Source: Candidatus Bathyarchaeota archaeon
Lineage (GTDB): Archaea; Thermoproteota; Bathyarchaeia; Bathyarchaeales; Bathycorpusculaceae
Direction: 5' to 3'
Assembly: GCA_963733095.1 (NCBI GenBank)
Contig: CAVTBV010000016.1
Coordinates: forward strand, 96,001-160,000
DNA: 64,000 nt
The notes under the pieces were generated by a model, which did not search any database, was not told where the DNA came from, and worked only from the letters and a program-made list of their open reading frames with translations. Made by a program: the position numbers and the translations under genes. Positions within the stretch are counted from its first letter, which is position 1. Each line of letters begins with the position of its first letter. Shown here piece after piece: positions 3,666-21,445 of this stretch.

Positions 3666-4177
3666 TGGAGACTGGAAAAACCAAAGTTATATCCGTGCTA
3701 GTTGAGAACAAACCTGGTGTCCTACAAATCATCGCCAACCTATTCAGACGCAGAAACTTTAACATAGAAAGCATCACCGTCGGTCCAACCCAGCAACACG
3801 ACATAGCCCGCATGACCATAACAGTCAACGAAGACGAAAAGACCATCGACCAAGTCATCAAACAAGTCGCAAAACAAATCGACGTCCTCAAAGTCGACGA
3901 ACTCTCTCTTGGCAACTTTGTCATGCGTGAACTCGCATTGATCAAAGTTAACGTGCCAAGCTCCAAAGAACGCAGCGACATCATCAACTGCGTAGAGGTC
4001 TTCCGCGGCAGAATCATCGATGTCTCAACCGACAGCCTAACAGTTGAAATCACAGGAACCCCAGACAAAATCGACGCATTCCTCAACCTCATGAACACCT
4101 TTGGAGTAATAGAATTGGCAAGAACAGGCATAACAGCCCTAGCTCGAGGCGCAAAATCGACAAGAATCGACGAATAA
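3665..4177 (+). CDS. ilvN: Acetolactate synthase small regulatory subunit
   Basis: ISVLVENKPGVL ACT domain, RELALIKV, ELARTG; 1-nt overlap with ilvB. Confidence 0.96.
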   Translation: METGKTKVISVLVENKPGVLQIIANLFRRRNFNIESITVGPTQQHDIARMTITVNEDEKTIDQVIKQVAKQIDVLKVDELSLGNFVMRELALIKVNVPSSKERSDIINCVEVFRGRIIDVSTDSLTVEITGTPDKIDAFLNLMNTFGVIELARTGITALARGAKSTRIDE

Positions 4178-4274
4178 ACAGCATCGATAAAGCGGAAATA
4201 CTTAATTGTCTGTTCTTTAAAATCCCCATTTGTCTTAGGTAAATTTAGGTTTAATTCAAGGTAAGCGAAAGACT

Positions 4275-5543: not shown

Positions 5544-6040
5544 ACAACAAAATCAAAGCTCCAGCCATAAAATTAGGCAACAACATCGACACAGACGTCA
5601 TTCTACCAGGCAAATACCTAATCTTAGTTGACCCCTGCGAATTAGCTAAACATGCATTGGAAAGCTTAGATACAGAGTTTGTTCAAAAAGCTAAAGGCGG
5701 CGTCATATTGGTAGGCGGCAAAAACTTCGGCTGCGGCTCAAGTCGTGAGCAGGCGCCCTTGGCGTTGAAGTACTCAGGAGTGAAATGCATCATCGCAGAA
5801 TCATTCGCCAGAATATTCTTCCGCAACGCAATCAACATCGGCTTGCCCGTAATCGAATGCAAAGGCATATCAAGAGCGGTTGAAACAAGCGACGAATTAA
5901 CCGTAGACTTTGAAACGGGCAAGATAGAAAACGTATCCAATAGCAAAAAGTTTCAAGTAGACAAGCTTCCACCATTCATCTTAGAAATCTTAACAGATGG
6001 CGGATTAATAGAGAACCTACGAAGGAAAATGAAAAAATGA
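5540..6040 (+). CDS. leuD: 3-isopropylmalate dehydratase small subunit
   Basis: NIDTDVILP, NFGCGSSREQA, SFARIFFRNAIN. Confidence 0.93.
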   Translation: MNNKIKAPAIKLGNNIDTDVILPGKYLILVDPCELAKHALESLDTEFVQKAKGGVILVGGKNFGCGSSREQAPLALKYSGVKCIIAESFARIFFRNAINIGLPVIECKGISRAVETSDELTVDFETGKIENVSNSKKFQVDKLPPFILEILTDGGLIENLRRKMKK

Positions 6041-7074
6041 CAGAATACAAAATATCCCTAATTCCAGGCGACGGCATCGGACCAGAATTAACCGAAGCCA
6101 CATTAAAAGTCCTAGATGCAGTTCAGAAAGAATTCGGCGTAAAACTTCAGATTGTAGAAGCTGAAGCAGGCGACGTTGCTCTTGAGAGAGTAGGCGCCGC
6201 ATTGCCAGCGGACACTGTGGAGAAAGTTAAGAACTCCCACGCATGCCTGAAAGGTCCAGTGGGTGAATCTGCAGCCGATGTAATTGTAAAGCTCAGAGTC
6301 ATGTTTGACTTGTATGCTAACCTACGCCCTCTGAAAGCCTATCCCAACGTTCCAGTTGCTCGCCCAGACATCGACATGATGTTTGTTCGCGAAAACACCG
6401 AGGACGTTTACAAGGGCTTAGAATTCACCATCGGGACAGACACCACCCTTTGCCTACGAGTTATCACAAGAAAAGCTTGCGAACGGATAGCCAAAAAAGC
6501 CTTCGACATCGCCCGCTTACGCAACGGCAAAAAGAAAGTCACAGCCATCCACAAAGCCAACGTCATGCGCGTCACCGACGGCTTATTTGCCAGCGTCTGC
6601 CGAGAAACAGCAGAACAGTATCCAGACATAGCCTTCAACGAACTCTACGTTGACGCAGCATCCATGCGATTAATCAAAGAACCAGAAATATTCGACGTCC
6701 TCTGCACATGCAACATGTTCGGCGACATCCTAAGCGACGAAGCAGCACAACAAATAGGCGGCTTAGGTATGGCTCCGGGCGCAAACATCAGCGACAACTT
6801 TGGCCTCTTCGAACCTATCCACGGATCTGCACCAAACCGAGCAGGAAAACACACCGCCAACCCAATCTCAATGATTCTTTCAGCAAAAATGATGCTTGAG
6901 TGGCTGGGAGAAAAATACGGCGACAAGAAATGCTTACAAGCAGGCGCAGCCATAGAGAACGGAGTAGTGTACGCTTTGCGTAACCGTCAAACTGTTCCAG
7001 ACTGCGGCGGCACCACCTCAACTGTGGGCATGGCTGAAGCCATCGCTGCAGCCTTAACCGTAAAAAGTGGCTGA
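6037..7074 (+). CDS. leuB: 3-isopropylmalate (isocitrate/isopropylmalate family) dehydrogenase
   Basis: GDGIGPE, RENTE, HKANV, NMFGDILSD, EPIHGSAP. Confidence 0.92.
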   Translation: MTEYKISLIPGDGIGPELTEATLKVLDAVQKEFGVKLQIVEAEAGDVALERVGAALPADTVEKVKNSHACLKGPVGESAADVIVKLRVMFDLYANLRPLKAYPNVPVARPDIDMMFVRENTEDVYKGLEFTIGTDTTLCLRVITRKACERIAKKAFDIARLRNGKKKVTAIHKANVMRVTDGLFASVCRETAEQYPDIAFNELYVDAASMRLIKEPEIFDVLCTCNMFGDILSDEAAQQIGGLGMAPGANISDNFGLFEPIHGSAPNRAGKHTANPISMILSAKMMLEWLGEKYGDKKCLQAGAAIENGVVYALRNRQTVPDCGGTTSTVGMAEAIAAALTVKSG

Positions 7075-7078
7075 TAGC

Positions 7079-8605
7079 ATGTCAAACAAAAACCAAAAAA
7101 CCATTCGAATTTTTGATACCACTCTAAGAGACGGGGAACAAACCCCCGGAGTTTCCTTGACCGCCGACGACAAGATTGAGATTGCACACCAACTCAGCAA
7201 ACTAGGAGTCGACGTCATCGAGGCAGGTTTTCCAAGCTCATCTGAAGGCGAAAAAAAAGTCGTCAAAGACATAGCCAAATCAGGCTTAACCTCAGAAATC
7301 TGCGCCCTGTCCAGAGCAACAAGGGGCGATATCGATGCAGCCCTGGAGTGTGATGTAGACGTAGTTCATGTTTTCATCCCAACCTCACCAGTCCAAATGA
7401 AATACGCCGTTAACTTGACGCCAGAGCAAGTGCTGGCCGCTACGGCAGATTCAGTTTCTTACGTCAAGAAACATGGGATAAAATGCGAGTTTTCACCCAT
7501 GGACGCAACACGCTCCGAAATGCCTTTCCTAAAAAAAGTCTGCAAAGCCGCACAGGAAGCAGGCATGGACAGCCTAAACGTACCCGACACCGTTGGAATT
7601 ATGATTCCCAAAACAACAATCCAACTAATAGAAGACCTAAAAACCGTCGTCACAGTACCGATAAGCACTCACTGCCACGACGATTTCGGTTTAGCAGTCG
7701 CCAATTCACTTGCGGCTGTTGAAGCAGGCGCAGCCCAAGTGCACGTCGCCGTCAACGGGTTAGGCGAACGCGCAGGCAACGCCGCGTTGGAAGAAGTGGT
7801 TATGGCGCTGCATATGATTTACAAGTACAAAACAAACGTAAACAGCAGGTTGCTGTACAGTACTTCAAGAATGGTTGCCTCTTTAACAGGCATAACCGTG
7901 CAGGCTAACAAAGCCATCGTCGGCGAAAACGCATTTGCCCACGAATCAGGAATCCACACCCGCGGCGTGACCGAGAAACCGTTAACATTCGAACCTATAA
8001 ACCCCGAATTAGTCGGCAGAACAAGAAAACTGGTCGCTGGCAAACTGGCAGGAACCCGAGGTATCAAAGCTGAACTTGAAGAAATCGGTATCCACCCAAC
8101 AGAGGAACAACTAAAGGAAATCGTTGGGCGCGTCAAAGAACTAGGCAACAAGGGCAAGATGGTCACCGATGCTGATTTAGTCGCGTTGACTTCTGCTGTT
8201 ATGGGTGAAGTGCTTGGTGAAGAAAAAATCGTTGACCTCTGCGACATGGCCGTCGTCACAGGCATCAAAGTCATCCCAACCGCATCAGTCCGCTTAGTTT
8301 TGAATGGAAAAGAATACGTTGCTGCCGAAACAGGTGTTGGACCAGTTGACGCTGTGTTGAAGGCTATTCAGAAGTTGACCAGTAGCATAGAGAACATCCG
8401 CTTAAGCGAGTACAGATTGGAAGCTATTACGGGCGGTTCAAACGCGGTTGCTGAAGTTGTCATAAAAGTCGAAGACGAAAAAGGCAACATCGTTTCAGCC
8501 AGAGCCGCCAGAGAAGACATCGTCATGGCAAGCGTTGAAGCAATGATAAACGGTATAAACAAACTCTTGCTAAAGAACCATCAAAAGCAGGGAAACAAAA
8601 AGTGA
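7079..8605 (+). CDS. leuA: 2-isopropylmalate synthase (LeuA/CimA family)
   Basis: [29 protein letters not shown] and C-terminal regulatory domain (GVGPVDA). Start is ATG 7079 or GTG 7067. Citramalate synthase activity cannot be excluded. Confidence 0.88.
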
Positions 8606-9420
8606 AAACAGTAGCCTTCCAAGGCGAACCTGGAGCCTACAGCGAAAGCGCAGTCTACCAGTTCTTCGGCTCAAAAGTCCAAGTTAAACCCTGCAGGGAT
8701 TTTCGCGATGTCTTTGAAAGCGTAAAGAAGCAGGAAGTCGAAGCGGGCGTAGTGCCAGTTGAGAACTCCCTTGAAGGCAGCATCAACCAAAACTACGACT
8801 TATTCTTCAGCTATAATCTGAGAGTCTGCGGAGAAGTTATCGTCAAAATCGCCCACTGCCTAATCGTAAACCCAGGAACAAGCAAAGACCAAATCAAATC
8901 AGTTTACTCCCATCCGCAAGCCTTGGCGCAATGCAGAAGCTACCTTGAAAAGTCAAAATGGGAAATAATCCCAACCTACGACACCGCGGGTAGCGTCAAA
9001 ATCATCAAAGAACAAAACCTCAAAAACGCCGCGGCCATCGCCAGTGAAAGAGCGGCAGAACTCTACAGCATGCAAATCTTGGCAAGAGATATAGCAGATA
9101 ACAAAGAAAACTATACACGCTTCTTTGTTCTATCCAACGAAGATTCGCCAGTTACAGGCAAAGACAAAACCAGCATAATCTTCTCAGCTAAACATGAACC
9201 AGGCTCACTCTACAACGCATTGGGAGAATTCGCCAAACGCAACATCAACCTAACACGCATCGAATCCAGACCCACCAAAAAAACAGCTTGGGAATACAAC
9301 TTTTACCTTGACTTTGAGGGACATCGAACCGAACAAAAATGCGCCGAAGCCCTAAAAGCACTGGAAAAGTACGCGACGTTTATTAAAGTCTTGGGCTCTT
9401 ACCCCAAGGCTACTTACTGA
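8602..9420 (+). CDS. pheA: Prephenate dehydratase
   Basis: QGEPGAYS, PVENSLEG, SHPQALAQC, NYTRF and ACT domain with ESRP. Confidence 0.96.
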   Translation: MKTVAFQGEPGAYSESAVYQFFGSKVQVKPCRDFRDVFESVKKQEVEAGVVPVENSLEGSINQNYDLFFSYNLRVCGEVIVKIAHCLIVNPGTSKDQIKSVYSHPQALAQCRSYLEKSKWEIIPTYDTAGSVKIIKEQNLKNAAAIASERAAELYSMQILARDIADNKENYTRFFVLSNEDSPVTGKDKTSIIFSAKHEPGSLYNALGEFAKRNINLTRIESRPTKKTAWEYNFYLDFEGHRTEQKCAEALKALEKYATFIKVLGSYPKATY

Positions 9421-9835: not shown

Positions 9836-10708
9836 TTATTTTTCTGTGGATTCGAGCATTTTGTACATAACATCGTAGGATTCTGCGAAGTCGCTGTCAG
9901 CGGCGGTTAGCTTCTTTTTGATTTGTTCCATTTTCTCGACTATTGCTTTTTGGTCTTTGTTTTTGATGAGGGTTAGCAGTTCTTGGGCTTTAGCCATAAA
10001 GAGGTCTTCGATTTCTCCAAGCCCCGACAGGTTTGTCTGTACGGCTGCATAGAGGTCGGGGGTTTCCAGTGCGGTTGCTTCTGCTAGGGTGAATAGCATT
10101 CGGTAGGTTGTGCCTGCGACTTTTTTTGTTTCAGGCAGGTTCTTTTGTTCCAGCAAGGTTTCGCATGCGACTAAGCCTAGAAAATGCGGCAACCCCAAAA
10201 CAACTGACATGAGTTCATCGTGTTTTTTGGGTGTCATGATGAAAACGTGGGCTTTTTCCTGTTCGAGCCATTGTTTGTATTTTTCCGCAAACTCCTGTTC
10301 CTTGCCGTTTGTCGGTGTTAGAACGTAGGCTTTGTGTTTGACGCCGTTGCTTCCTGGACCAAAAACTGGGTGTGTACCCAACACAGTGGCTTTTTTGATG
10401 TATTGGTGCATGGTGTTAACTGGTGTTTCCTTGATTGATGCAATGTCTATGACAAACTGTCCTTCATGCAATACTGGACTTATTTTTTTAACGACTTCTT
10501 CGATGGCGTTTATGGATACGCATAGGTAGATTTGGTCAGCGTCTTGGGCTGCTTCTTGGAAGTTTGTGGTTAAGTCCACCAGTAGATCTTTTAGATTTTC
10601 AAGTTTCTCTTTTTTTCTATCTGCTAAAACTACATCGTAATCTTTGGAGAGAAAAAATTTGGCGAACCAAACGCCCATTTTCCCCGCGCCGATTACGGCA
10701 ATTCTCAT
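9836..10708 (-). CDS. tyrA: Prephenate dehydrogenase
   Basis: GAGKMG Rossmann motif, DIASIK, HPVFGP, HDELMS. Confidence 0.93.
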   Translation of the reverse strand: MRIAVIGAGKMGVWFAKFFLSKDYDVVLADRKKEKLENLKDLLVDLTTNFQEAAQDADQIYLCVSINAIEEVVKKISPVLHEGQFVIDIASIKETPVNTMHQYIKKATVLGTHPVFGPGSNGVKHKAYVLTPTNGKEQEFAEKYKQWLEQEKAHVFIMTPKKHDELMSVVLGLPHFLGLVACETLLEQKNLPETKKVAGTTYRMLFTLAEATALETPDLYAAVQTNLSGLGEIEDLFMAKAQELLTLIKNKDQKAIVEKMEQIKKKLTAADSDFAESYDVMYKMLESTEK

Positions 10709-11787
10709 TGAGTTGCTGCCTCGCAGATTTTATTGAGCCCAACCTCGATTTGGTCGTCTGGCGCAGTTAGGGATATGCGGAAGTGCTCGTGGTAGTCGCC
10801 AAAAGCTGATCCTGGAGCAACAGCAACGCCCTTGTCAAGCAGGTTTAAGGTGAATTTCTCGCCGTCTAATCCGTCGAGTTTAGGAAACACGTAGAAGGGT
10901 GCGTCGGGTTTGGTGAATTTGAAGCCTGCCGCTGCGAGTTTGGTGCTTGCGAGGTCTGCGCGTTGTTTGTATTTTGTTTTGATGGCGGAGGCGATTTGTT
11001 TGTGCAGTTCTAAGCCTTTTAATGCGGCGTCTTGGATGAAGACGGGCACGTTGTTGATGGTTATTTGGTTGAGTTTGGTTACGTTGTCGATGAGCATTTT
11101 GTTTGCTATCAAGTAGCCTATGCGCCACCCAGTCATTGTGAATGTTTTGGAGAAGCCGTTTGAAAGGATATGCTTGCAGTCGCAGTCGTAGTCAAGGATG
11201 CTTTTGGTTTTCACGAAGCTGATTGCGCCGTACACTTCGTCGGAGAGGATGGTGACGCCTTTTTTGTTAGCTAACTCCACTATGCCATCGAGGGTTTTGT
11301 CGTCTATGGCTTTGCTTGTGGGGTTGTTTGGGTTGTTGAGGATAATCATTTTTGTTTCGCTGTCAATCAAGCCCTCAAGCTTGTCAAGGTGAATTTTCCA
11401 GCCGTCTTCCATTTCCGTCCGCAAAAGCTTGGTTTTCGCGCCAAAACTCTTCGCGATTAAATCGTAAGCTGTCCAGTATGGAGTAGGAATGATTACGTTG
11501 CCGCCGTTTTTGAGCATCAGAAACATCGTTGAGAATATCGCCCATTTTGAACCCGGCGTAATAACCACGTTCTCAGTTTTGACGCCGTGGACCTCTGCAA
11601 TTTTCTGCCTTAGCTTCAGCTCGCCATAAGAGGAGGAATACTTGGTTTTGCCAGCCTTCAAAGAAGCATACGCAGCTTCCACTATTTCGGGCGGCGTAGC
11701 TAAGTCTGGGTCACCCAGGTTTAGACGAATTATCTTTTTTCCTTCACTTTCAAGCTTGAGTGCTTTCTCGTTTATCTCGTAGAGCAT
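10705..11787 (-). CDS. Class I/II PLP aminotransferase (aromatic/aspartate)
   Basis: NNPNNPT, DEVY, SKTFTMTGWRIG; start placed at ATG 11787 behind a GGAGA SD. Confidence 0.9.
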   Translation of the reverse strand: MLYEINEKALKLESEGKKIIRLNLGDPDLATPPEIVEAAYASLKAGKTKYSSSYGELKLRQKIAEVHGVKTENVVITPGSKWAIFSTMFLMLKNGGNVIIPTPYWTAYDLIAKSFGAKTKLLRTEMEDGWKIHLDKLEGLIDSETKMIILNNPNNPTSKAIDDKTLDGIVELANKKGVTILSDEVYGAISFVKTKSILDYDCDCKHILSNGFSKTFTMTGWRIGYLIANKMLIDNVTKLNQITINNVPVFIQDAALKGLELHKQIASAIKTKYKQRADLASTKLAAAGFKFTKPDAPFYVFPKLDGLDGEKFTLNLLDKGVAVAPGSAFGDYHEHFRISLTAPDDQIEVGLNKICEAATQ

Positions 11788-11813
11788 TTCATCGAAATCT
11801 CCATTAAGAGCTT

Positions 11814-12074
11814 TTATTCTTGAACCGCACTGCACATATTAACTATTTCGCGGTAAACTGCTTCAATTTGACCAGCATCAAGACCGAATTCGGTTCCTTT
11901 TGATCTAATCCGCGTGTAGACATCATTTTCCCTTGACGTGTCTCGAACGGGTTTTCCTTGCTTCTTCTTTGCAGCCCCGATGGTTTTGCATATGTTAACC
12001 CGTTGGCATAAGGCGCTTAGGATTTGGTCGTCGATTTCGTCGATTTTTTTTCTGAGACTTGAAAGTTCATCCAT
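11814..12074 (-). CDS. aroQ: Chorismate mutase (AroQ type)
   Basis: LRKKIDEIDDQIL...R...IG..K......D..RE signature. Confidence 0.92.
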   Translation of the reverse strand: MDELSSLRKKIDEIDDQILSALCQRVNICKTIGAAKKKQGKPVRDTSRENDVYTRIRSKGTEFGLDAGQIEAVYREIVNMCSAVQE

Positions 12075-12076
12075 GT

Positions 12077-13180
12077 TTAATGCTCCTTGAGGATTTGGGG
12101 AATGTAGCCTTTGCGGATCAGGTGGTCAGCTAAGGTTATGGCAACCGCTGCTTCGATGGCGGGCACTGCTTTTGGAACCACACAAGGGTCATGTCTACCT
12201 TTAACATTCAAAGAGGCATTCTCCATCTTGTACATGTCAACGGTCGTCTGTTCCTTAGCGATTGAGGGCGTGGGCTTTATTGCTGCTCGAATCAAAATCG
12301 GCATGCCGCTTGACAAACCGCCCAGAATGCCACCTGCATTCTCCGTTGCAGTAACAACCTTGCCGTTTTTCACAAGATAAGCATCGTTGTTCTCTGAGCC
12401 CCGCAAACGTGCAGCCCCAAAGCCAACACCGAATTCAACCCCTTTTACAGCGGGAACAGCAAACACTGCCTTCGCTAAATCAGCATCCAACGCATCAAAC
12501 AGCGGCTCACCAACCCCGACAGGCATGTTTAGCACGACACATTCAACTATGCCGCCCAGGCTGTCGCCTTCTTTTTTAGCTTCGACGATGGTTTCTTCCA
12601 TCTTTTCTGCGCAGGCTAAGTCGGGGCAACGGGTCGCGGCTGCGTAGCGGTTTTTGCGGATTTCGGAGAAACTAAACTGCCGTTGGCTTTTAACGTTGCC
12701 AATGGCTAAGGTGTAAGCTAAAACATCAACATTGTACCTGCTGAGCAGTTTTTTGGCTATGGTGCCAGCCATTATGAGGGCAACTGTGACTCTGCCTGAG
12801 AAGCGTCCGCCGCCTCGGTAATCGTTAAAGCCGCCATATCTGACGCGCGCCGGGTAATCTGAGTGTCCAGGTCGTGGCAGGTCTTTTATGGCTTCGTAAT
12901 CGCTGGATTGGGTCTCTTTGTTCTCAACCATCAGAGCGATTGGAGCACCAGTCGTTAACCTGTTAAAGACGCCTGAGAGAATTTGGGCTTTGTCTTTTTC
13001 GACCCGAGCAGAAACAATTTTGGGCTCAGCTGGAATTCTGAGGTCAAGTTCCTCCTGAAAATCAGCTTCCGAGAGCGGCAAGCCAGCTGGGCAACCATCC
13101 ACAACGACGCCGACGACTTTGCCGTGGCTCTCCCCAAACGTTGTAACAATGAATTCTTTACCTATCGAATTTCCCGCCAA
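12077..13180 (-). CDS. aroC: Chorismate synthase
   Basis: TTFGESHG, RPGH, GGGRFSGR, KPTPSI, GRHDPC. Confidence 0.97.
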   Translation of the reverse strand: MAGNSIGKEFIVTTFGESHGKVVGVVVDGCPAGLPLSEADFQEELDLRIPAEPKIVSARVEKDKAQILSGVFNRLTTGAPIALMVENKETQSSDYEAIKDLPRPGHSDYPARVRYGGFNDYRGGGRFSGRVTVALIMAGTIAKKLLSRYNVDVLAYTLAIGNVKSQRQFSFSEIRKNRYAAATRCPDLACAEKMEETIVEAKKEGDSLGGIVECVVLNMPVGVGEPLFDALDADLAKAVFAVPAVKGVEFGVGFGAARLRGSENNDAYLVKNGKVVTATENAGGILGGLSSGMPILIRAAIKPTPSIAKEQTTVDMYKMENASLNVKGRHDPCVVPKAVPAIEAAVAITLADHLIRKGYIPQILKEH

Positions 13181-14456
13181 CTAAGTTAGCTCCTAGTTGT
13201 TTTAGATGAGTAAAGAACTGCGGATAAGACTTTCTGACGCACTCGGCGTTTTGGATTGTTGTTTCTCCTTCTGCGCCTAAAGCGGCGACTGCGCATGCCA
13301 TCGCAATCCGGTGGTCGTTATGGGAATTTATGACCGCACCATGTAGAGGCGAACCACCCTCTATGATTAAACCGTCATTGCTGATTGTGATTTGTGCCCC
13401 CATCTTTGTTAGTTCAAGGTAGAGTGATTCAAGTCGGTCGGATTCCTTGAGGCGAAGCCTGTGGGCGCCAAAAATGTGGGAGAGCCCTTTTGAGTAGCAT
13501 GCAAGAACCGCTATTGCTGGGACAAGGTCAAGAATGTTCTTGGCGTCTATCTCTAAAGGTCTAAGAGCTGAACCTGTGCCTTCGATCTCAACATTATCCT
13601 CGCAGACTTTCCCGTTAACACCCATGTGTTTTAGGATGCCCATGATGGCCTTGTCACCCTGAACACTGCTATAACTAAGGTTGTTTATTTGGACTTTAGA
13701 AGTGGTTATGGCTGCGGCGGCGAGGAGAAAAGCGGCTGAGGAAAAATCGCCCGGAACTCTGCCGTCTTGAGGTGTGTAGGTTTGGTTTGCTGGGATATGA
13801 ATGTGGTTTTCATGGGCAGGCACCTTAATTCCATGGTTAACAAGGACCACTTCGGTCATTTTTACGTAGTCCGCGGACTCCAACGGCGAAGTCAGCATTA
13901 TTTCCGTGTCCACCTTAGCCATTGGACAGGCAAACATCAAGCCAGAAATAAACTGTGAGCTAACATCGCCCGCAATGAAGGTTTCACCCCCGACAATTCC
14001 GTCACCTTCAACGAAAACTGCGTCTTTGCCTTCGAGTTTTCCAATTTCGGCGTTAGCCCCGAGTTCTTTGAGGCTTGCCAACAAAGGAGCCACAGGACGT
14101 TTCTCAATGGAACCCTTAAACACCAAGGTCGAAGGACCATTCGCAAGTGCAGACACAGGAATCATGAAACGCAAAGTCGCACCTGATTCACCACAGTCGA
14201 TTGGCTCCTTTGCGCATTTAAGCGGCAACGCTCCTTTAATTGTCCAGCAGCCCTCTGCAACCGTCACTTTTGCACCCAAAGCTGTAACAGCTCGAAGTGT
14301 GGCTTCTGTGTCGTCGGATAAGAGTGGATTTGATACCTTGGATGTGCCGTGGGAGAGGGCAGCGGCGATTACCATTCTCTGTGTGTAGGACTTTGAGGGT
14401 GGCGCACAAACTTGGCCGCTTAACTTTTCGGTTTTTTTAATTTTTACATCAGTCAT
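13158..14456 (-). CDS. aroA: EPSP synthase
   Basis: PPSKS, GESGATLR, SSQF, LRLKESDR, DHRIAM, KSYP; start placed at ATG 14456. Confidence 0.96.
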   Translation of the reverse strand: MTDVKIKKTEKLSGQVCAPPSKSYTQRMVIAAALSHGTSKVSNPLLSDDTEATLRAVTALGAKVTVAEGCWTIKGALPLKCAKEPIDCGESGATLRFMIPVSALANGPSTLVFKGSIEKRPVAPLLASLKELGANAEIGKLEGKDAVFVEGDGIVGGETFIAGDVSSQFISGLMFACPMAKVDTEIMLTSPLESADYVKMTEVVLVNHGIKVPAHENHIHIPANQTYTPQDGRVPGDFSSAAFLLAAAAITTSKVQINNLSYSSVQGDKAIMGILKHMGVNGKVCEDNVEIEGTGSALRPLEIDAKNILDLVPAIAVLACYSKGLSHIFGAHRLRLKESDRLESLYLELTKMGAQITISNDGLIIEGGSPLHGAVINSHNDHRIAMACAVAALGAEGETTIQNAECVRKSYPQFFTHLKQLGANLVGGKFDR

Positions 14457-15327
14457 TAAAATACACCTTGGCTTTTTCACAGTTCAATTTTGTCTGCAAG
14501 ATTTCGCCTTCATACTTTTGCAGAGCGGCTTTAACTGAATCAGCCTTGTCTTTGGGAACTACAGCGGTTACCGCTGGTCCTTTGCCGCACAACCCAGCCG
14601 CCACTGCCCCAGCCGCCAATGCATCGATGGCGATTGCGGGGTTGAAGTTGCATGCTGAAGAGTAAATCAGGCCATTTAGAGTGAGGGCTTCCCAAACCTT
14701 GCCTTCCAAAGCCTTCTCAAACGCTATTTCGACAAGGGGCTTGACAGTTTTGAGCCTGTTAACGTTTGAGTCTGCGGTGTAGGCTTTTTCTGGCGGCACA
14801 TGAAAGAGCACACTTAAGTCTTCTTGCAACGGCATCTGTTTGATTATTTCCCGTTTCAGGTTATCAGTAACCACTATGCCGCCGAAGTATGAAGCGCAAG
14901 CATCATCGAACGCGCCTGTCACAGTGACTTTTGCGTCAAAAGCTGCTTCAACACCTATCTTGACGATTTCTAAGTCATCGAGTTTTTTGCCAAGCGCCGT
15001 CGTGGTTGCTAGGGCAGTTGCGTTTGCGGCGGCGCTACTGCTTTTGAGTCCCTTGGCGATGGGGATGCTTGAGCGGGTTTTAATTTTTACGCCAAAACTC
15101 TTTTCTAAACTGAATCTTTGCAGGACACGTGCCGCTGTTTTTTCGATGAGAAGTGTGCTTTCTTTTGGGTCAGATACAATTTCTGCGTTGATAACGCCTG
15201 GTTCGTCGGTTAGTTTGACTTCTGCTTTAGTCCACAAATCCACACCAAACGCTGCACCCTTCCCAAGTGCAATCGCGTTAACGATTGTGGCAGCTCCATG
15301 GGTAATTGCAGTTGCTTTCCCAGTCAA
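14449..15327 (-). CDS. aroK: Archaeal (GHMP-family) shikimate kinase
   Basis: HGAATIVNAIA, PIAKGLKSSSA, TGAFDDA. Confidence 0.95.
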   Translation of the reverse strand: MTGKATAITHGAATIVNAIALGKGAAFGVDLWTKAEVKLTDEPGVINAEIVSDPKESTLLIEKTAARVLQRFSLEKSFGVKIKTRSSIPIAKGLKSSSAAANATALATTTALGKKLDDLEIVKIGVEAAFDAKVTVTGAFDDACASYFGGIVVTDNLKREIIKQMPLQEDLSVLFHVPPEKAYTADSNVNRLKTVKPLVEIAFEKALEGKVWEALTLNGLIYSSACNFNPAIAIDALAAGAVAAGLCGKGPAVTAVVPKDKADSVKAALQKYEGEILQTKLNCEKAKVYFND

Positions 15328-15329
15328 TT

Positions 15330-16187
15330 TTACACCTTCTGCAAATGATTAAGCGCCGCCTGCCTCATAACTTCAACCGGAGCAGACTTACCCGTCCAAA
15401 GCTCAAAGGATGCGGCACCCTGATAAATCAACATCTCAACCCCACTTACCACCTTAGCTCCTGCAGCTTTCGCCTCCTTAGCAAGTTTGGTCTCAAGCGG
15501 GTTGTAGACTATATCCATTACCGACAAATCGGGTCTTAAGAGTTTAGGACTCACAAGGCTTTCGTCTGCTTTGGGTTTCATACCGATTGAAGTGGCATTT
15601 ATGAGAATATCTGAGTCTTGGAGGTTCTGCTGTATTTCTTTTGGTGAAATTGAGCCTGCAACTATTTTTTTGTTCACAGTCTTTTCAAGCAGTTTTGCTA
15701 ATGCTTGGGCTTGTTTTATGGTTCGGTTAAGAACTGCTAGTTCATCGGCTTCTTTAGCCATCGTGTACGCTATAGCTCTTGCAGCGCCGCCTGCACCAAG
15801 TAAAAGAACTTTTCTGCCCTTTGGCTCCACGCCGTTTTCTCTTAGAGCTTTTAGGGCACCTACGCCGTCTGTGTTGAACCCGAAAAGTTTGCTATCTTTG
15901 TTTAGGATTGTGTTGACCGAATTTACGATTTGAGCAGATAGGTCTGTTCGGTCTAAATACTTCAACACTGTGCTTTTATGGGGCATGGTTACGTTTAAGC
16001 CCCGCACATTTAGGGCACGCATGCCATTTACAGCGTTTTCTACTGCTTTTGGCTTTACTTTGAAAGCTAAAAATGCGTAGTCGAGGCTGAGAGCATTAAA
16101 TGCGGCATTGTGCATGATGGGGCTTAATGTGTGCTCTATAGGGTCACCGATGACTCCGCAAACCCTTGTTTTCCCCGTAATGTTCAT
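15330..16187 (-). CDS. aroE: Shikimate dehydrogenase
   Basis: SPIMHN, NVTMPHK, NTD, GAGGAARA, DIVY. Confidence 0.96.
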   Translation of the reverse strand: MNITGKTRVCGVIGDPIEHTLSPIMHNAAFNALSLDYAFLAFKVKPKAVENAVNGMRALNVRGLNVTMPHKSTVLKYLDRTDLSAQIVNSVNTILNKDSKLFGFNTDGVGALKALRENGVEPKGRKVLLLGAGGAARAIAYTMAKEADELAVLNRTIKQAQALAKLLEKTVNKKIVAGSISPKEIQQNLQDSDILINATSIGMKPKADESLVSPKLLRPDLSVMDIVYNPLETKLAKEAKAAGAKVVSGVEMLIYQGAASFELWTGKSAPVEVMRQAALNHLQKV

Positions 16188-16870
16188 TGTTTTATCCCCA
16201 AAAGACCATAAACAGTGTGCATTTCATTTATGCTCATCTGCCCAACCGCGGTTTCACTGCCTTGCTCGAGTGAGGCGAAGGTAAAAAGGGAACCGAACAC
16301 AGGGGAGAGCAACCTTGAGATTTTACCGTGTTCGCCCATGCAGAAGCAGACGAGTTGTGCCTTACATGAAGCAAAAGAAACAAAGCTCAAAACGGGCAGG
16401 TTGTCTTCGACCTGTTTAGCCGTTGTCACAATCTTGCAGATGCTGGCTCCGCTGGCAATCTCATCATCAAGAACTTTCTCCATAGCGGAAACACTAAGTA
16501 CGCCGTTGAATTTGTGGTAGGAAACGATTGTTTTTGTCCCCAACTGCTTGAGTTGGCTGATTGTGTCTTTATGCTTTGGGCTTGTTAGGTTAACGTCAAT
16601 GTATTCAAAACCGCTCTTGGCGGCAAATAGCAGAGTTTGTTGCCACTCGGATTCTGTTCCTTGGAAGTATCCTTTTTCGCTTTGAAGTTTGTTTGCGGCG
16701 ATTAAGGGGATTTTTGTACTTGCTGAAAGGTCAGATAGATTTCTGGAGACTTCAAGGCAGTCGAGTCTTACTTCAATAAGGTCTGCTTCGGCTTGCTCTG
16801 CCTTCTCAATTAGATTTAACGCTTCAAGGTTGTTTTTTGGGAGAATCGAAACGCAGATTCTCGGAGTCAC
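16184..16870 (-). CDS. aroD: Type I 3-dehydroquinate dehydratase
   Basis: ADLIEVRLD, SYH, CKIV, MGEHGKISR, AVGQ. Confidence 0.92.
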   Translation of the reverse strand: MTPRICVSILPKNNLEALNLIEKAEQAEADLIEVRLDCLEVSRNLSDLSASTKIPLIAANKLQSEKGYFQGTESEWQQTLLFAAKSGFEYIDVNLTSPKHKDTISQLKQLGTKTIVSYHKFNGVLSVSAMEKVLDDEIASGASICKIVTTAKQVEDNLPVLSFVSFASCKAQLVCFCMGEHGKISRLLSPVFGSLFTFASLEQGSETAVGQMSINEMHTVYGLLGIKQ

Positions 16871-17889
16871 TTTTCAATCACCGTTTCTTCAGGCACAGAT
16901 ATCCCGAAGTGTCTTCCTCCCTTCGCCGCTAAATACACAAGGACTTCGTCGTTGGGTCTGAGTTCGGTTACGGGTTTAGAGGCTTTGGTGGTAACTAGGC
17001 GGATGGTTTCTGCGTTTTGAAGAATCGTCTTTATCACTTTGCTGTCTACCTGGGCTTCTACTAAGATAAGAGGTCTGATTTCAATTTTTATGCGACCCAC
17101 GTTTCCAGTTCGTGTCTTGCCTTCACGGTTGACGATTACAACTTCGTCGCCCGCCTTGAATTCTTGCAGGTAACGGGTTGTTTGCAAGTTGCCTAAAGTG
17201 TACATGGATAATGACCCAGCGTTTACTCTGAAGGGTCGTGAGGCAACATAGGGGTTCTCACTTACTTCCGCTTCGATTAAGAATAATCCGGCACTTTGGC
17301 TTCCGACAAGAATGCCTTCGCCCTGCTTCATCAATTCACAAGTATCCACGCAGACCCTTGCACCTGTGCCGATTGGCTTTGTGGAAACGATTTTGGCAAT
17401 TGCCATTTCCAGTTTTAGTGCTTCAGGTTTAACGATGGCGACGGTTTTTAGGATTTCATCTTGGTCTGAAGTCTTTAGCAAGACGCCGTCGGTTCCCAAT
17501 TCAAGGGTTTCAAGCGCCACTTTTGCTTCTTCTGCGTTGGTGACTTCGGCGATTAGTTTGCTTTTACCTTTTATTCGGGCAATCAGGTTTTCTAAGGGGA
17601 TAACTCGCCAGTTTGCACAACTGACGACTAAGTAATTTGCTCCCAGTTGGGCTACTTTGACTGTCAGGTTCTCGGTTTCTTTGTCGCTTATGCATATTCT
17701 TAAAACCTTTTGACCCTTGAGCCCATTTAGGGTATCTTCAACTTTGGGTACTATAATGTTAAGGGTTTCTTTGGTAGCCAAAAAAGTGGCAGTATTTCCC
17801 TCAACGACTGCGTCGGCGTATTGAGAGACAAGCGGATTTAGGGCTTCTTTTCCGTCGCTTTCTGACTCTATCCAAAGTTCCTTCAACAT
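16867..17889 (-). CDS. aroB': 3-dehydroquinate synthase II (archaeal, MJ1249-type)
   Basis: WRVIPLENLIA, RVCVDTC, RPFRVNAG, GRIKIEIRPL, LQNAETIRLV, GRHFG. Confidence 0.94.
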   Translation of the reverse strand: MLKELWIESESDGKEALNPLVSQYADAVVEGNTATFLATKETLNIIVPKVEDTLNGLKGQKVLRICISDKETENLTVKVAQLGANYLVVSCANWRVIPLENLIARIKGKSKLIAEVTNAEEAKVALETLELGTDGVLLKTSDQDEILKTVAIVKPEALKLEMAIAKIVSTKPIGTGARVCVDTCELMKQGEGILVGSQSAGLFLIEAEVSENPYVASRPFRVNAGSLSMYTLGNLQTTRYLQEFKAGDEVVIVNREGKTRTGNVGRIKIEIRPLILVEAQVDSKVIKTILQNAETIRLVTTKASKPVTELRPNDEVLVYLAAKGGRHFGISVPEETVIEK

Positions 17890-18674
17890 TTCTCACCGAG
17901 AATCTTTAGTGCTTGTTCAACCGTTGCGTTTTGGTGGACGATGGCTGATAGTGCTTTTGCTATTTGGGTTGGTTTTTCGCATTGGAACACGTTTCGTCCG
18001 ATGGAGAGTCCTGCGGCTCCAGCTTTCATCGAATCGCTTGTGGTTTGGAGGACTTCCTCTAAGGATTTGCATTTTGGTCCACCCGCGATGACTACTGGAA
18101 CTGGGCAGCTTTCAACTACTGCTTTGAATGTTTCTATGTTGCCTGTGTAGTTAGTTTTGATTATGTCTGCGCCGAGTTCTGCGCCTATTCTTGCTGCGTG
18201 GGCAACGACGTCTGGTGCATGTTCATTTTGGATCCTTGGTCCCCGTGGATACATCATGGCTAAGAGGGGAATTCCGTAAATGTCGCATTCCTCTGAGACT
18301 TTGCCCAGGTTCTGGAGCATTTTGTCCTCATCTTGTGCGCCGACGTTAACGTGCACAGAGACGGCGTCTGCTCCGATGCGGATGGCTTCTTGGACGCTAC
18401 AGACTTGGACTTTTGCGTTTAAGTTGGGGCTAAGATTCGACATGCCCGACAACATCACGATTAAGCCTGCACCGTCAACTTCGATGCTTTTTGCTATGCC
18501 CTTGTGGACAAGGATAGCGTCTACTTTGCCCTCTACAAGTTTGTTAGTTATCTGTTGCATGTTGGTTATGCCCTGTATGGGTCCAATAGTTACGCCATGG
18601 TCCATAGGAACGATTATTGTGTGGTTGTCTTTCTGCATGATTTTTCTTAGTCTGCGGGTTTTTCCTGTATTCAT
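17883..18674 (-). CDS. aroA': 2-amino-3,7-dideoxy-D-threo-hept-6-ulosonate synthase (MJ0400-type class I aldolase)
   Basis: PMDHG, HKG, AMMYPRG, GADIIKT, AGGPK, GRNVFQ; adjacent to aroB'. Confidence 0.92.
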   Translation of the reverse strand: MNTGKTRRLRKIMQKDNHTIIVPMDHGVTIGPIQGITNMQQITNKLVEGKVDAILVHKGIAKSIEVDGAGLIVMLSGMSNLSPNLNAKVQVCSVQEAIRIGADAVSVHVNVGAQDEDKMLQNLGKVSEECDIYGIPLLAMMYPRGPRIQNEHAPDVVAHAARIGAELGADIIKTNYTGNIETFKAVVESCPVPVVIAGGPKCKSLEEVLQTTSDSMKAGAAGLSIGRNVFQCEKPTQIAKALSAIVHQNATVEQALKILGEKC

Positions 18675-18684
18675 TTTCTTCCAC

Positions 18685-19920
18685 CTAGTGTGTTTTCAGT
18701 GAGTTTTTAATTAACTTTAATGCTTTTTCTTTATCATTCCAATCTACAAAAAGTAGAATACTCGAAGTAATGGTCAGTATGCCTGAGATGTTTATGCCTG
18801 CTAAGCGGAGGTCTTCGCTGATTTTGCCGATTATGCCGTGTGTTTCTTCTAAGCCGACTCCGCTGGTTTTGAGGAAGACAAGGTCTTTTTTAACTGCCAT
18901 GGCTATGGTTTCTTTGTTGCTTATTGTTATTTTGTGGATTTGGTTGAAGAGCACATCGATGTTTTTTTCTTGGGGAACATAGAGAATTATAGAGTTTGTG
19001 TTCATCGACATACCCAATAACATGGAGTATTCTTTTACTTTCTCAATCATTTCGTTAATGACTACTGGGTTAGCGGATATGCCGTTTCCAATCACCGTTA
19101 TCTCTGCAACAGGGGTTTGGTGAGAGATTTCTGCATCTAACTCTGTAGCTAAGCCTCCTTTGATTAAGGTGCCTTCGCTACTTAAGTCGCAATGTGCATT
19201 GCTGATTACTTTAACATCGATGTCTTTGGGTTTGTACTTGAGCGCTTTGCTATGGATGAATTTGGCGCCTGAATCTGCCAAGCCAACTAGGGTTGTAACG
19301 TTGATTTCTGGAAGCAGTTTGGGGGACGAGATGATTTTGGGGTCACTTGACATTATGCCATCTGCATCAGTCACCAAGACAACTTGGTCTGCATTAATAC
19401 CCTGTGCCAATATAAACGCGGTTGTGTCACTTCCGCCTCTGCCCAAAGTGGTGATTTTGCCGTTTTTAGTTTTTCCGACAAACCCTGCAATGACAGGAAT
19501 GATTCCTGATTCGACAAACGGAAGGATACATTCTTTGATGTTTTTCTCGCATTCCCGAACGATTGGATTGGCGTTTTGGAATGAGTCATCGGTGATTATT
19601 GGCCATTTGTTATCCATGGGGTCAAAGTAGCATGCGTCTACACCATTGCTCTTCAGTGCGGCGGCGAATATTCGTACGCTTGTACGTTCGCCCATCGATA
19701 GGATATCATCTAATTCATGTTTTTGCAGTTTCCCATTTGAAGTATTCTTAGCCGTGGTCATCAGGACATCGGTTGTTTTGCCCATAGCGGAAACTACTAC
19801 AGCGATTTTGGTGCCTTTTTTGGCTTCGTTTACGACGGCGACGACGGCTTTGAGGAGCCTTTCATGGTCGGCAAGGCTAGAGCCACCGAATTTTACAACT
19901 ATCTTTTTGTTACTCTGCAT
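18685..19920 (-). CDS. Aspartate kinase (first gene of the aromatic operon)
   Basis: VVKFGGSS, VVSAMG, TLGRGGSDTTA, GAK; C-terminal ACT-like region. Confidence 0.9.
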   Translation of the reverse strand: MQSNKKIVVKFGGSSLADHERLLKAVVAVVNEAKKGTKIAVVVSAMGKTTDVLMTTAKNTSNGKLQKHELDDILSMGERTSVRIFAAALKSNGVDACYFDPMDNKWPIITDDSFQNANPIVRECEKNIKECILPFVESGIIPVIAGFVGKTKNGKITTLGRGGSDTTAFILAQGINADQVVLVTDADGIMSSDPKIISSPKLLPEINVTTLVGLADSGAKFIHSKALKYKPKDIDVKVISNAHCDLSSEGTLIKGGLATELDAEISHQTPVAEITVIGNGISANPVVINEMIEKVKEYSMLLGMSMNTNSIILYVPQEKNIDVLFNQIHKITISNKETIAMAVKKDLVFLKTSGVGLEETHGIIGKISEDLRLAGINISGILTITSSILLFVDWNDKEKALKLIKNSLKTH

Positions 19921-19977
19921 GTTGGTGCCCCCGTGTTTCGCCCAGAACCGCTACCAAAAAATTTTTCAGCTCTGGGC
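19921..19977 (-). promoter_or_regulatory. Attenuator-like RNA switch between leader peptide and aspartokinase
   Basis: 11-bp stem GCCCAGAGCUG/CGGUUCUGGGC starts right after the leader stop, with an A5U6-containing loop. An alternative UUGGU-A-GC-GG-UUCUG/CGGGG-GC-ACCAA stem would cover the GGGGG SD. Confidence 0.7.
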
Positions 19978-20064
19978 CTAATGAAAATGGTAATAATAAA
20001 AGTAGTAGTCGAAGCTGGGAAACTGTAACGCAATGAGTCCATTTTTGTTTTCAGCATTAGACAT
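19978..20064 (-). CDS. Putative Phe/Tyr-sensing leader peptide, 28 aa (MSNAENKNGLIALQFPSFDYYFYYYHFH)
   Basis: 9 of the last 14 codons are Phe/Tyr; lies between a BRE/TATA and the aromatic operon. Confidence 0.8.
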   Translation of the reverse strand: MSNAENKNGLIALQFPSFDYYFYYYHFH

Positions 20065-20097
20065 TGCTTCGAACCTGTCCAAACAGTCATCTGCCAA

Positions 20098-20115
20098 AAA
20101 ATATAAGCGTTTCGG
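20098..20115 (-). promoter_or_regulatory. BRE/TATA promoter of the leader-aro operon
   Basis: Minus strand CCGAAACG-CTTATATTTT; implied TSS near 20075-20080, just upstream of leader ATG 20064. Confidence 0.6.
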
Positions 20116-20539
20116 AATAAGACTAACCAAAAGTGAGGCATCTGCAGAAAGTCGTTTTGTAATTCTAATCTTGAAAGATGCGACAGTTAGCGGCCCATTC
20201 AAACCCTCATATTTCACAATGAAATGCTACCAAAATCCAAGTGTACACATTATAGTTCGGTTGTAACTTTGAAGAGTTAGTCCTGCCAGATGCTCTGGTT
20301 CCAATCGCCATACTCCAAATCAATTATGTGTCATTTTAGCCGATTAACTGACCTTGACTTTTTTGTTCCTTTACAGTTTGGAGGCCATGATTTTGCCAGA
20401 ACAAACCTGCTGCAATTTCTATTATGATCCTGACGCAGGGCTTCGCCATTTTATTATTCGTTGTTAATTTAGGTCTTTTTAAACGAAACACGGAAATTTG
20501 AGTTGCAGTTAGAGAACGCAAATCCGAAGTCGAAGCAAA

Positions 20540-21445
20540 TCATTTTCTGTAGAGCAAATAAACTCCAAAAACCATAGCTATCCCAGCAAAAATCTGCACG
20601 AAAGTGAACCCTTCTCTGAGAATAACGAAAGCGAAAACTGCTCCGAAAAGAGACGCTGTTGAAAAGATAATGCCAGTCCGCATAGAGCCAATTTCTTTAA
20701 GACCTACCATAAAAAACAGAATTGAGAACCCTATGCTAAATGCCCCTACAGTGATTAGGTAAGGGAAAGCTGAAAGCGGGACGTAGAAGTCTAATTTTAA
20801 TGCATACACAACAAGCAGAAGGCTTACTCCACCTATTAGACATTTTAGGGCAGCTACAAGAAGCAGGTCTTCCTTTACGCATAGAAACTTGCTCAGGTTG
20901 TTGTCTATCCCCCAAAACAAACATCCGGTCAATATTAGGAGGTTACCAATAACCCATGTTTCTAATGACAACTGGTAAAATTGTCCATTGGTTGACAGAA
21001 ATACGGCACCAATGACCAGCAGTGTAATTGCACCTATTTCTTTTTTATTGCACCGTTCCCTTAGAAATGAAATAGCTATTAAAACTGTAAAGAGAGCTTC
21101 GGCGTTTTGAAGCAAAGATGCATTTAATGCAGTGGTCTGGTTAAGACCGTTAAGAAACAATACTGGAGCAATAATAGAGCCACAGAGCACCACCAAACCA
21201 AGTGTAGCTACGTCTTTTTTGCAGAATTTGGGCTCGGTCTTTGTTGGAGTTTTCAGTAGCCGCATGACATGTTTGCGAATTGGAGAGAAGCGAACTGCCG
21301 ATAAAACGATTCCTGCAAAAAGATAGATTAGCCCGGCCACTACGGTTGGATTAACATTGGCTAACGCAATCTTGTTGAGTGTGGTTCCAACACCGAAAAG
21401 GAGGGCAGACCCAACAGCACTTACATAACCCCAGTGATGCGTCAT
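20540..21445 (-). CDS. DMT/EamA family transporter
   Basis: About 10 TM segments in two repeats; SALLFG, NASLLQNAEALFT, WGIDNN. Confidence 0.88.
   Translation of the reverse strand: MTHHWGYVSAVGSALLFGVGTTLNKIALANVNPTVVAGLIYLFAGIVLSAVRFSPIRKHVMRLLKTPTKTEPKFCKKDVATLGLVVLCGSIIAPVLFLNGLNQTTALNASLLQNAEALFTVLIAISFLRERCNKKEIGAITLLVIGAVFLSTNGQFYQLSLETWVIGNLLILTGCLFWGIDNNLSKFLCVKEDLLLVAALKCLIGGVSLLLVVYALKLDFYVPLSAFPYLITVGAFSIGFSILFFMVGLKEIGSMRTGIIFSTASLFGAVFAFVILREGFTFVQIFAGIAMVFGVYLLYRK

Follow-up and report, generated by a model that had tools for sequence, protein, structure and literature searches.

A conserved Phe/Tyr-codon leader with a stop-adjacent hairpin upstream of the bathyarchaeial aromatic amino-acid operon: a candidate ribosome-mediated attenuator

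What could be the role of a 28-codon reading frame crowded with phenylalanine and tyrosine codons, lying just ahead of an operon for tyrosine synthesis in an archaeon? The question is raised by a 64,000-nucleotide stretch of Candidatus Bathyarchaeota archaeon DNA (GenBank assembly GCA_963733095.1, contig CAVTBV010000016.1, positions 96,001 to 160,000; hereafter the window), whose minus strand carries a small open reading frame (sORF) directly upstream of an aspartokinase-like gene. An initial annotation had proposed a leader-peptide attenuator at this locus, composed of a promoter with transcription factor B recognition element and TATA box (BRE/TATA), a Phe/Tyr-rich leader peptide and alternative hairpins. 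The promoter-like element was recovered on the minus strand at 20115-20096. The reading frame was likewise found as described, running from the ATG at 20064 to a TAG at 19980-19978, with nine Phe/Tyr residues among its last 14 and the run extending to the second-last sense codon. Pfam matches bore out the operon as well, with 11 aromatic-pathway genes, no trp gene among them, and a kinase ATG that begins 57 nt past the sORF stop codon. Sequence comparison and folding models together suggest that the element is probably a Phe/Tyr-sensing, ribosome-mediated attenuator. The alternative hairpins, discussed further below, fared less well. The features referred to in the text are the following, all on the minus strand.

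20096..20115, minus: BRE/TATA-like element CCGAAACGCTTATATTTTTT, read directly in the sequence; putative promoter.
Between the BRE/TATA-like element and the sORF ATG, minus: conserved box CAGGTTCGAAGC.
20066..20072, minus: 5′ arm UCGAAGC of helix P1, in the ~12-nt 5′ untranslated region (UTR); RNAalifold helix, 58 sequences.
19978..20064, minus: leader sORF MSNAENKNGLIALQFPSFDYYFYYYHFH, 28 codons plus TAG (ATG 20064-20062, TAG 19980-19978), recognised by conservation of frame and ATG.
20009..20015, minus: 3′ arm GCUUCGA of P1, within codons S17-F18-D19, pairing with 20066-20072.
19984..20022, minus: aromatic codon cluster F15, F18, Y20, Y21, F22, Y23, Y24, Y25 and F27, the presumed sensing codons.
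19940..19977, minus: stem A hairpin, with 5′ arm GCCCAGAGCUG (19977-19967), a 16-nt loop containing A5U6 (19966-19951) and 3′ arm CGGUUCUGGGC (19950-19940).
19928..19932, minus: Shine-Dalgarno (SD)-like GGGGG of the kinase gene, 7 nt beyond stem A, with GAAACAC between.
18685..19920, minus: first structural gene, aspartokinase-like, 411 aa, ATG at 19920 (Pfam AA_kinase and ACT, E 1.3e-47).
9836..18674, minus: ten further operon genes (Pfam).

The density of aromatic codons in the sORF is exceptional in its own genome (2.84 Mb). A scan for sORFs of 12-60 aa with ATG starts returned 25,981 frames, of which seven hold at least eight Phe/Tyr in a 12-residue window. Among the 1,601 intergenic sORFs lying upstream of a same-strand gene, the focal frame ranks first. 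Judged from TATA spacing alone, transcription would start near 20076, about 12 nt before the sORF. The CCGAAACGCTTATATTTTTT string recurs identically in same-genus relatives and occurs once in the genome; no second promoter-like box was found between the sORF and the kinase gene in the focal stretch read.

Is the frame kept in relatives? Orthologues of the kinase, 77-93% identical, are present in 24/24 same-genus genomes, and more distant ones occur in other families of the order. In two sets of loci, an F/Y-rich sORF was sought whose end lies 44-86 nt upstream of the kinase start. The first comprised 27 loci with at least 52% kinase identity, and the second, built from one genome per species, 80 further loci (59 of Bathyarchaeia type and 21 from other lineages). 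The in-frame sORF was found in 27/27 loci of the first set and in 56/59 further Bathyarchaeia-type loci, down to 48% kinase identity, and in 0/21 of the homologues from Hadarchaeota, Jordarchaeia, unclassified lineages and Halobacteria, where the corresponding region held 0-3 aromatic residues or no sORF. The three Bathyarchaeia-type misses are L084, L089 and L102. By-eye reading of these loci identified a GTG-start F/Y sORF in L089 (VIPKTELSPSLVCFAYQFFYFYQ), a weaker peptide in L084 (DYIYGEGYWLYH) and an ambiguous case in L102. The element occurs once per genome, always before the aromatic operon. As to relatives without the kinase, 4/5 also lack an aroA′ match to the query used (L120, with 37% identity, was left out).

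Deduplication left 77 distinct leaders, 12-32 aa in length (median 27). Every one of them has between five and ten Phe, Tyr or Trp in its last 12 residues (median 8; 77/77), a stretch that is 34% Tyr and 28% Phe, compared with 9.1% Phe, Tyr and Trp together in the genome's long ORFs. In 59 leaders, the final aromatic codon is the second-last sense codon; it is the very last one in 15 and the third from the end in 3. Read in the other two frames, the same stretch yields mostly Ile, Thr, Ala and Ser, or Leu. The N-terminal part of the frame is variable and its indels are multiples of three in the alignment; the C-terminal peptide is itself replaced from clade to clade, as in SFDYYFYYYHFP, FYSFSYFFYN, FFKRYYYY, FFDFFYYYFYFE and GYWFAYTFTY. 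The reading frame thus persists in distant clades where the nucleotide blocks have been replaced. The kept feature is aromatic codon content in an open frame, rather than a particular nucleotide string. Of the outcomes named in the initial annotation as refuting, neither a lack of F/Y-rich sORFs in relatives nor nucleotide conservation independent of the frame was observed. In 74 of the 75 leaders with enough flank, the sORF ATG is preceded at 28-62 nt by a TATA-like hexamer, compared with 5.8% of random windows. A box at the right distance would place the sORF inside the transcript. In several clades, SD-like motifs could also be read before the sORF ATG. As an aside, leader Tyr codons are mostly UAU (213/315), whereas the long ORFs of the genome favour UAC (10,439/16,730), and leader Phe codons are UUU in 151/257 cases versus 9,809/19,859 genome-wide. 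This may reflect the use of rarer codons, or merely the AU-rich composition of the leaders.

The second part of the element is the hairpin. As the initial annotation had it, an 11-bp helix (stem A) starts directly after the UAG and carries A5U6 in its 16-nt loop. The helix is present in both the minimum free energy (MFE) and the centroid folds computed with ViennaRNA, and its sequence occurs once in the genome. Taken over its full 191 nt, the leader shows no unusual stability (z 0.45; 133/200 shuffles are as stable or more so). What stands out is the placement of the hairpin. In 76/77 leaders it starts within a span reaching from 3 nt ahead of the stop codon's end to 5 nt past it, and in 44 it follows the stop directly. 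Its 3′ end falls 0-9 nt from the SD-like motif in 72 of the 73 leaders where such a motif was found; the distance to the kinase start codon is 10-22 nt in 74/76, most commonly 18-19 nt (19 nt in the focal leader). The geometry and energy criteria for the hairpin are satisfied by 74/77 leaders and by 116/2,492 background stop codons in comparable genome contexts. The genome scan behind the latter figure gives a background rate only, as its matches lie mostly inside genes and the focal leader is absent from them, probably because of the length filter applied to the farthest start. The arms GCCCAGAAC/GUUCUGGGC hardly vary in the focal clade, where their changes mostly produce G-U pairs. Distant clades build the stem from unrelated sequences, e.g., GGAGAAACCG/CGGUUUCUCC and GGGGAAGGGGAGGG/CUUUCCCUUUCUCC. 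An apical helix formed by the A-run and the U-run of the loop is another possible reading.

RNAalifold analysis of 58 aligned leaders identified a second helix, P1, between the UCGAAGC of the 5′ UTR and the GCUUCGA of codons S17-D19. The commonest pair is kept by 48-57 of the 58 sequences at each of its seven positions; changes are mostly to G-U and none is double-sided. This pairing would explain the conservation of the S-F-D/E/G codons at the nucleotide level. The 5′ UTR also shows above-shuffle complementarity to the hairpin 5′ arm (20066-20080 versus 19964-19977; mean z -1.26, with 30/76 below -1.5). Such pairing is far weaker than stem A, the 5′ UTR resembles the 3′ arm as well, and no role for it was found. 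The same complementarity was noticed in clades with different sequences (L012, L065, L070, L073-L079), for example CUGGGC with GCCCAG. A cmscan search of 19700-20600 with E up to 10 detected no Rfam leader or attenuator family at gathering score; the three matches returned are unrelated, with 15-18 bits against gathering scores of 70-90.

Frame and hairpin keep within a narrow range of distances from each other. Counted from the first base of the last aromatic codon, the first paired base is 9 nt away in 44/76 leaders and 7-11 nt away in 65/76. The effects of a ribosome on the stop-to-RBS segment (RBS, ribosome-binding site) were modelled in the 77 leaders with footprint sizes assumed from bacterial and haloarchaeal data. 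Mean MFE was -18.7 kcal/mol in the free leader. Placing the last aromatic codon in the A site gave -17.6 kcal/mol when positions to A+8 were occupied and -10.2 kcal/mol when occupancy reached A+11; placing the stop codon there gave -5.8 kcal/mol. These energies suggest that a ribosome paused in the run leaves the hairpin standing, and that a finishing ribosome removes it. In silico, then, the state of the hairpin depends on ribosome position. This part of the initial annotation, which had predicted that the hairpin would survive a pause on the aromatic codons and be lost at the stop, agrees with the models, in which the geometry is that of the 2:3 hairpin of bacterial attenuators. Models in which the stalled ribosome itself melts the hairpin are disfavoured in most clades, since at 9-nt spacing a paused ribosome barely touches it (residual stem -17.6 to -10.2 kcal/mol).

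The mechanism that we infer from these data, including translation of the sORF, ribosome stalling, the sign of the regulation and the read-out step, would be as follows. The leader would act in cis, its ribosome gauging charged tRNA-Phe and tRNA-Tyr and setting expression of the Phe/Tyr operon accordingly. Transcription would begin about 12 nt upstream of the 28-codon sORF. When Phe or Tyr is scarce, the ribosome would dwell on the aromatic run, the hairpin would stay folded and the U-rich run would be covered. When both are plentiful, the ribosome would reach the stop codon, unzip the hairpin, terminate and leave the leader bare. The hairpin may serve as a clamp that holds the aromatic-codon strand beside the purine-rich RBS. 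A parked ribosome would remove this competing strand and thereby give a more open RBS (ON), the bare leader representing the OFF state. From the kinase gene, the effect could spread along the overlapping operon through translational coupling.

Initiation of kinase translation is our favoured guess for the read-out step. It is favoured because the distance from the hairpin to the SD and AUG stays tight across clades with unrelated stems, and because the SD pairs mainly with the aromatic run and masking the run lowers the opening energy of the RBS. With no ribosome in the ensemble, the last eight sORF codons are the main partner of the SD (mean fraction 0.36), and every other region reaches 0.11 or less. 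Masking the last ten codons lowers the mean RBS opening energy from 7.70 to 5.39 kcal/mol, with a drop in 60/77 leaders that exceeds 1 kcal/mol in 50/77. Sensor and translational read-out, taken jointly, form a tentative model to which we give somewhat less than even weight.

Several observations weigh against this proposal. The gain from masking is just 0.9 kcal/mol in the focal leader, and in 8/77 leaders the opening energy rises on masking, by more than 1 kcal/mol. The predicted sequestration is unspecific: codon-shuffled runs give 8.50 and random genomic 30-mers 7.13 kcal/mol, compared with the native 7.70. The latter value is that of ordinary SD-led genes of the genome (7.67, n=164), and the focal RBS, at 5.92 kcal/mol, sits at their 27th percentile. 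Duplexes between the F/Y run and the RBS are no better than shuffles in 76 leaders (mean z +0.46; 3/76 below -1.5), and RNAalifold of the 58 sequences gives P1 and stem A alone, with no RBS-sequestering helix. A basal helix between the run and the RBS was thus considered as a selected structure and not established, the shuffled, random and genome-wide controls all matching the native leaders. The clamp also leaves the kept 9-nt spacing unexplained. Covariation support is thin within the focal clade, as both helices are nearly invariant there and just 2/16 consensus pairs show a double-sided change. Finally, the relatives are phylogenetically linked and the counts given above overstate the number of independent cases. 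On balance, the modelled clamp is compatible with the data, short of demonstration.

One possibility that makes use of the spacing is that a paused leader ribosome and an initiating kinase ribosome are directly juxtaposed at the foot of the hairpin. The stem is separated from the last aromatic codon by 9 nt and from the downstream AUG by 18-19 nt in most leaders, a spacing that is presumably close to that of collided ribosomes. If true, this would be a read-out principle undescribed for bacterial attenuators.

The alternative that survives best keeps the Phe/Tyr sensor and moves the read-out to the transcript, through termination, polarity of the FttA/aCPSF1 type, endonucleolytic processing or 5′-to-3′ decay. 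The transcript would be shielded by a folded hairpin, or by a ribosome parked close to its 5′ end; the leader would lie exposed once termination has cleared it. Oligo-U termination, FttA-dependent polarity and stabilisation of ermC by stalled ribosomes are all known phenomena. The hairpin tells paused from completed translation and its freed 3′ arm has no RNA partner, which makes read-out by a protein or by the polymerase plausible. Furthermore, RBS sequestration does not exceed background. The hairpin loop contains a run of at least four U in 56/76 leaders and of at least five in 39/76, and U4-U5 directly follows the hairpin in L025, L073, L078, L079, L090 and L091. The U-tracts, however, are not universal. 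U4 or longer is missing from the loop in 20/76 leaders, including whole subclades (L023, L024, L056, L058, L059, L074-L076), and, by the criterion of the hairpin scoring, just 2/76 have U4 or longer after the hairpin; the focal stem A is followed by GAAACAC, and no intrinsic terminator was found between leader and kinase. Moreover, the polymerase passes the loop U-tract ahead of the 3′ arm, and stem A therefore cannot gate termination there. Simple coupling, in which a ribosome near the polymerase suppresses termination, has the wrong sign for a biosynthetic operon. The loop U6 was accordingly rejected as a regulated terminator at the conserved core of the element, and with it the exposed-U6 terminator of the initial annotation. 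Transcript-level read-out also leaves the tight spacing between the hairpin and the SD/AUG unexplained. We regard it as rather unlikely, yet a serious contender.

A second alternative dispenses with amino-acid sensing. The sORF product could be an aromatic-rich micropeptide with a function of its own, or the conserved blocks GGTTCGAAGC, AGCTTCGA and GCCCAGAAC/GTTCTGGGC could be operator or RNA sites bound by a protein, with Phe/Tyr content as a by-product. Consistent with this idea, the four blocks are near-invariant in nucleotides within the focal clade, where kinase protein identity goes down to 69%, the palindrome TTCGAA overlaps the presumed start site, and the motif SF[DEG]Y.FYY shows stronger conservation than a codon run by itself would need. 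Distant clades, on the other hand, replace both blocks and peptide, and there the aromatic richness, frame, length, hairpin and operon position persist. The N-terminal two thirds of the peptide are free to vary, and the restriction of the element to one copy per genome, before the aromatic operon, likewise speaks against this alternative. Protein-mediated control could moreover coexist with sensing. On this evidence, a leader that senses no amino acid seems improbable.

Far less room is left for the exact switch put forward by the initial annotation, in which melting of stem A lets its loop end and 3′ arm pair downstream as stem B, burying the GGGGG SD, and/or exposes the U6 terminator, to turn the operon off. 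The named bases can be drawn paired, and in the distant clades L026/L086, L027, L091 and L092 a pyrimidine-rich 3′ arm lies 2-4 nt from a GGAGG-type SD, so that a local fold-back is conceivable there. Nevertheless, stem B is missing from the MFE and centroid folds, and its duplex in the focal leader (-7.6 kcal/mol) is weaker than those formed by shuffled arms (z +1.0). In the set of 76 leaders, duplexes between the 3′ arm and the RBS are no better than shuffles (mean z +0.26; 4/76 below -1.5). When the 5′ arm was blocked, RNAalifold of the 58 sequences returned no conserved fold (0.0 kcal/mol), and neither the free nor the blocked alignment contained mutually exclusive antiterminator/terminator pairings. 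Of the two stems for which conservation had been anticipated, stem A is present in 76/77 leaders and stem B has no conserved fold. The SD was also expected to be free when the ribosome stalls and buried when it terminates. The opening energy of the SD/AUG region is 6.42 kcal/mol in the terminating and 6.22 in the stalled state (higher in 37/77 leaders, lower in 28/77; -0.21 in the focal leader). Thus, folding with a masked ribosome upholds the dependence of the hairpin on ribosome position, and leaves SD/AUG accessibility unchanged. This particular switch appears very improbable.

Least probable of all is positive coupling, in which the near-leaderless sORF would be a loading pad whose finishing ribosomes are handed to the SD-led kinase gene along a path shortened by the hairpin: the folded hairpin does put the stop codon ~19 nt from the kinase AUG and termination-reinitiation coupling reportedly occurs in archaea, but the terminating ribosome has already unzipped the hairpin, so that the actual path is 57 nt, the sign is wrong, as end-product starvation would lower expression, and the match of the codons to the end products of the pathway is left unexplained.

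How does the proposed Phe/Tyr-sensing leader compare with known systems? Leader-peptide attenuation is a textbook bacterial mechanism, resting on coupled transcription and translation. Judged by sequence and models, the bathyarchaeial leader looks like an archaeal version of such ribosome-sensed attenuators. As in E. coli pheL-pheA (and trpL, hisL, thrL and leuL), a short leader ORF with C-terminal end-product codons adjoins the first biosynthetic gene and has at its stop codon a hairpin that is blocked by the terminating ribosome. Like that of pheL, the run extends to the second-last codon, and many leaders here even share the F-P-stop ending of pheL. Unlike the pheL type, the bathyarchaeial leader lacks both a terminator hairpin with U-run and a second hairpin that would exclude the first; it would sense two amino acids, is preceded by an archaeal BRE/TATA-like promoter element and has its hairpin abutting the RBS. 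In the Salmonella mgtL/mgtP proline-codon leaders, codon-specific stalling picks a leader fold that is read by Rho. These provide the nearest analogue of transcript-level read-out; here, by contrast, no alternative fold was detected in the folding analyses, and archaea have FttA/aCPSF1 rather than Rho. TrpY of Methanothermobacter resembles the element in exerting feedback control at the 5′ end of an archaeal aromatic operon, but is a DNA-binding repressor that senses free Trp, as opposed to a putative translated leader. No archaeal leader-peptide attenuator was found among the titles and abstract openings of the literature searched.

The closest precedent for the logic of translational read-out is provided by the mycobacterial poly-Cys leader sORFs described by Canestrari et al. 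(10.1101/834739), where stalled ribosomes block structures that sequester the downstream RBS, and the stable RBS-sequestering duplex is demonstrated by mutation. The likeness extends to an unannotated sORF as first cistron, a 5′ UTR that is short or missing, cognate codons in a run, the lack of an intrinsic terminator and the proposed control of the RBS through ribosome occupancy of the sORF. The bathyarchaeial leader differs from that system in having no conserved or above-background predicted RBS helix, and in the domain of life and the amino acids that it would sense. In the ermC and cat leaders, summarised in the same source, a ribosome arrested in the leader ORF likewise remodels a hairpin adjacent to the RBS. 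In those leaders arrest is drug- and peptide-dependent and the SD lies inside the hairpin, whereas here uncharged tRNA is the proposed cause and the SD lies 0-9 nt outside; moreover, the ribosome paused on the bathyarchaeial run leaves the modelled hairpin largely intact.

A broader claim would be that the element is a class-wide amino-acid attenuator of the Bathyarchaeia, the first in Archaea, which senses two amino acids through a lone stop-adjacent hairpin read by the translation or transcription machinery itself. As the hairpin has no alternative pairing partner, its state would on this view have to be read by one of these machineries. Taken as a whole, we hold the claim to be possible, on the doubtful side. 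In any event, an element found across Bathyarchaeia offers a concrete and testable archaeal case of leader-peptide attenuation. It is about 200 nt long and makes clear mutational predictions for the start codon, the codon identities, the hairpin and the two spacings. Its read-out, in which a terminator/antiterminator pair plays no part, could show how the archaeal ribosome, mRNA structure and initiation or termination factors communicate. The leader could also serve as a marker of aromatic amino-acid prototrophy and its regulation in an abundant and largely uncultured lineage of sediments and soils.

The operon itself is of the DKFP (6-deoxy-5-ketofructose 1-phosphate)/shikimate-to-Tyr type, with 11 genes led by the aspartokinase-like one. 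By Pfam, genes 2-6 encode a DeoC-type aldolase (aroA′), a type II dehydroquinate synthase (DHQS II; aroB′), a type I dehydroquinase (DHquinase I; aroD), shikimate dehydrogenase (aroE) and a GHMP-type shikimate kinase, and genes 7-11 encode 5-enolpyruvylshikimate 3-phosphate (EPSP) synthase, chorismate synthase, a CM_2 chorismate mutase, a class I/II aminotransferase and prephenate dehydrogenase. The genes overlap or are spaced by 10 nt or less, a packing that fits a presumptive single transcript with translational coupling. The sole Chorismate_bind (trpE-type) match in the genome is on another contig.

Prephenate dehydratase (8602-9420, +; PDT and ACT) is the last gene of an opposite-strand operon, 1953-9420, that converges on the aromatic one. 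This arrangement places the Phe-specific step outside the control of the F/Y leader. The operon starts with an ORF of 570 aa (1953-3665, +) and one of 170 aa (3665-4177, +), judged to be ilvB, from its N-terminal sequence alone, and ilvN-like, by sequence reading alone. Aconitase-type large and small subunits, an Iso_dh protein and an HMGL-like/LeuA_dimer protein (leuC, leuD, leuB and leuA) follow, before prephenate dehydratase.

Elsewhere in the order, four genomes of 1.2-1.6 Mb and 91-99% completeness (G025, G029, G032 and G039) gave no match to the kinase or aroA′ queries; their families may be aromatic amino-acid auxotrophs. Two loci from assemblies titled Sulfotelmatobacter and Nanoarchaeia metagenome-assembled genome (L064 and L067) share the kinase (71% identity) and F/Y leader of the Bathyarchaeia, and their contigs are probably mis-binned.

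Does the genome use leader peptides more generally? No general leader-peptide system was found among the 1,601 intergenic ATG-sORFs of at least 12 aa. Seven other sORFs have a biased amino-acid content and, by Pfam, none of the genes downstream of them is cognate and biosynthetic. No cognate leader was found before trpE, nor before the ilvBN-leuCDBA-pheA operon, where ilvB and leuC were checked. The example of the F/Y leader suggests all the same that unannotated sORFs in archaeal 5′ regions merit systematic screening. Two further frames were noticed along the way. An 18-codon sORF, MSMRDRHLNSRDRRVQIL (1797-1853, +), lies ~100 nt before the ilvB start; it ends in V-Q-I-L and holds the direct repeat GGGATCGTC twice, and is not rich in branched-chain codons. 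The other, MKLDQQTLGNRRLTQEKLCCCCCNCILHTGCNNFQI (L032:1269-1379, minus strand; G000 contig C10), has five consecutive Cys codons and lies 108 nt before a 190-aa ORF without Pfam match; its likeness to the poly-Cys leaders is superficial.

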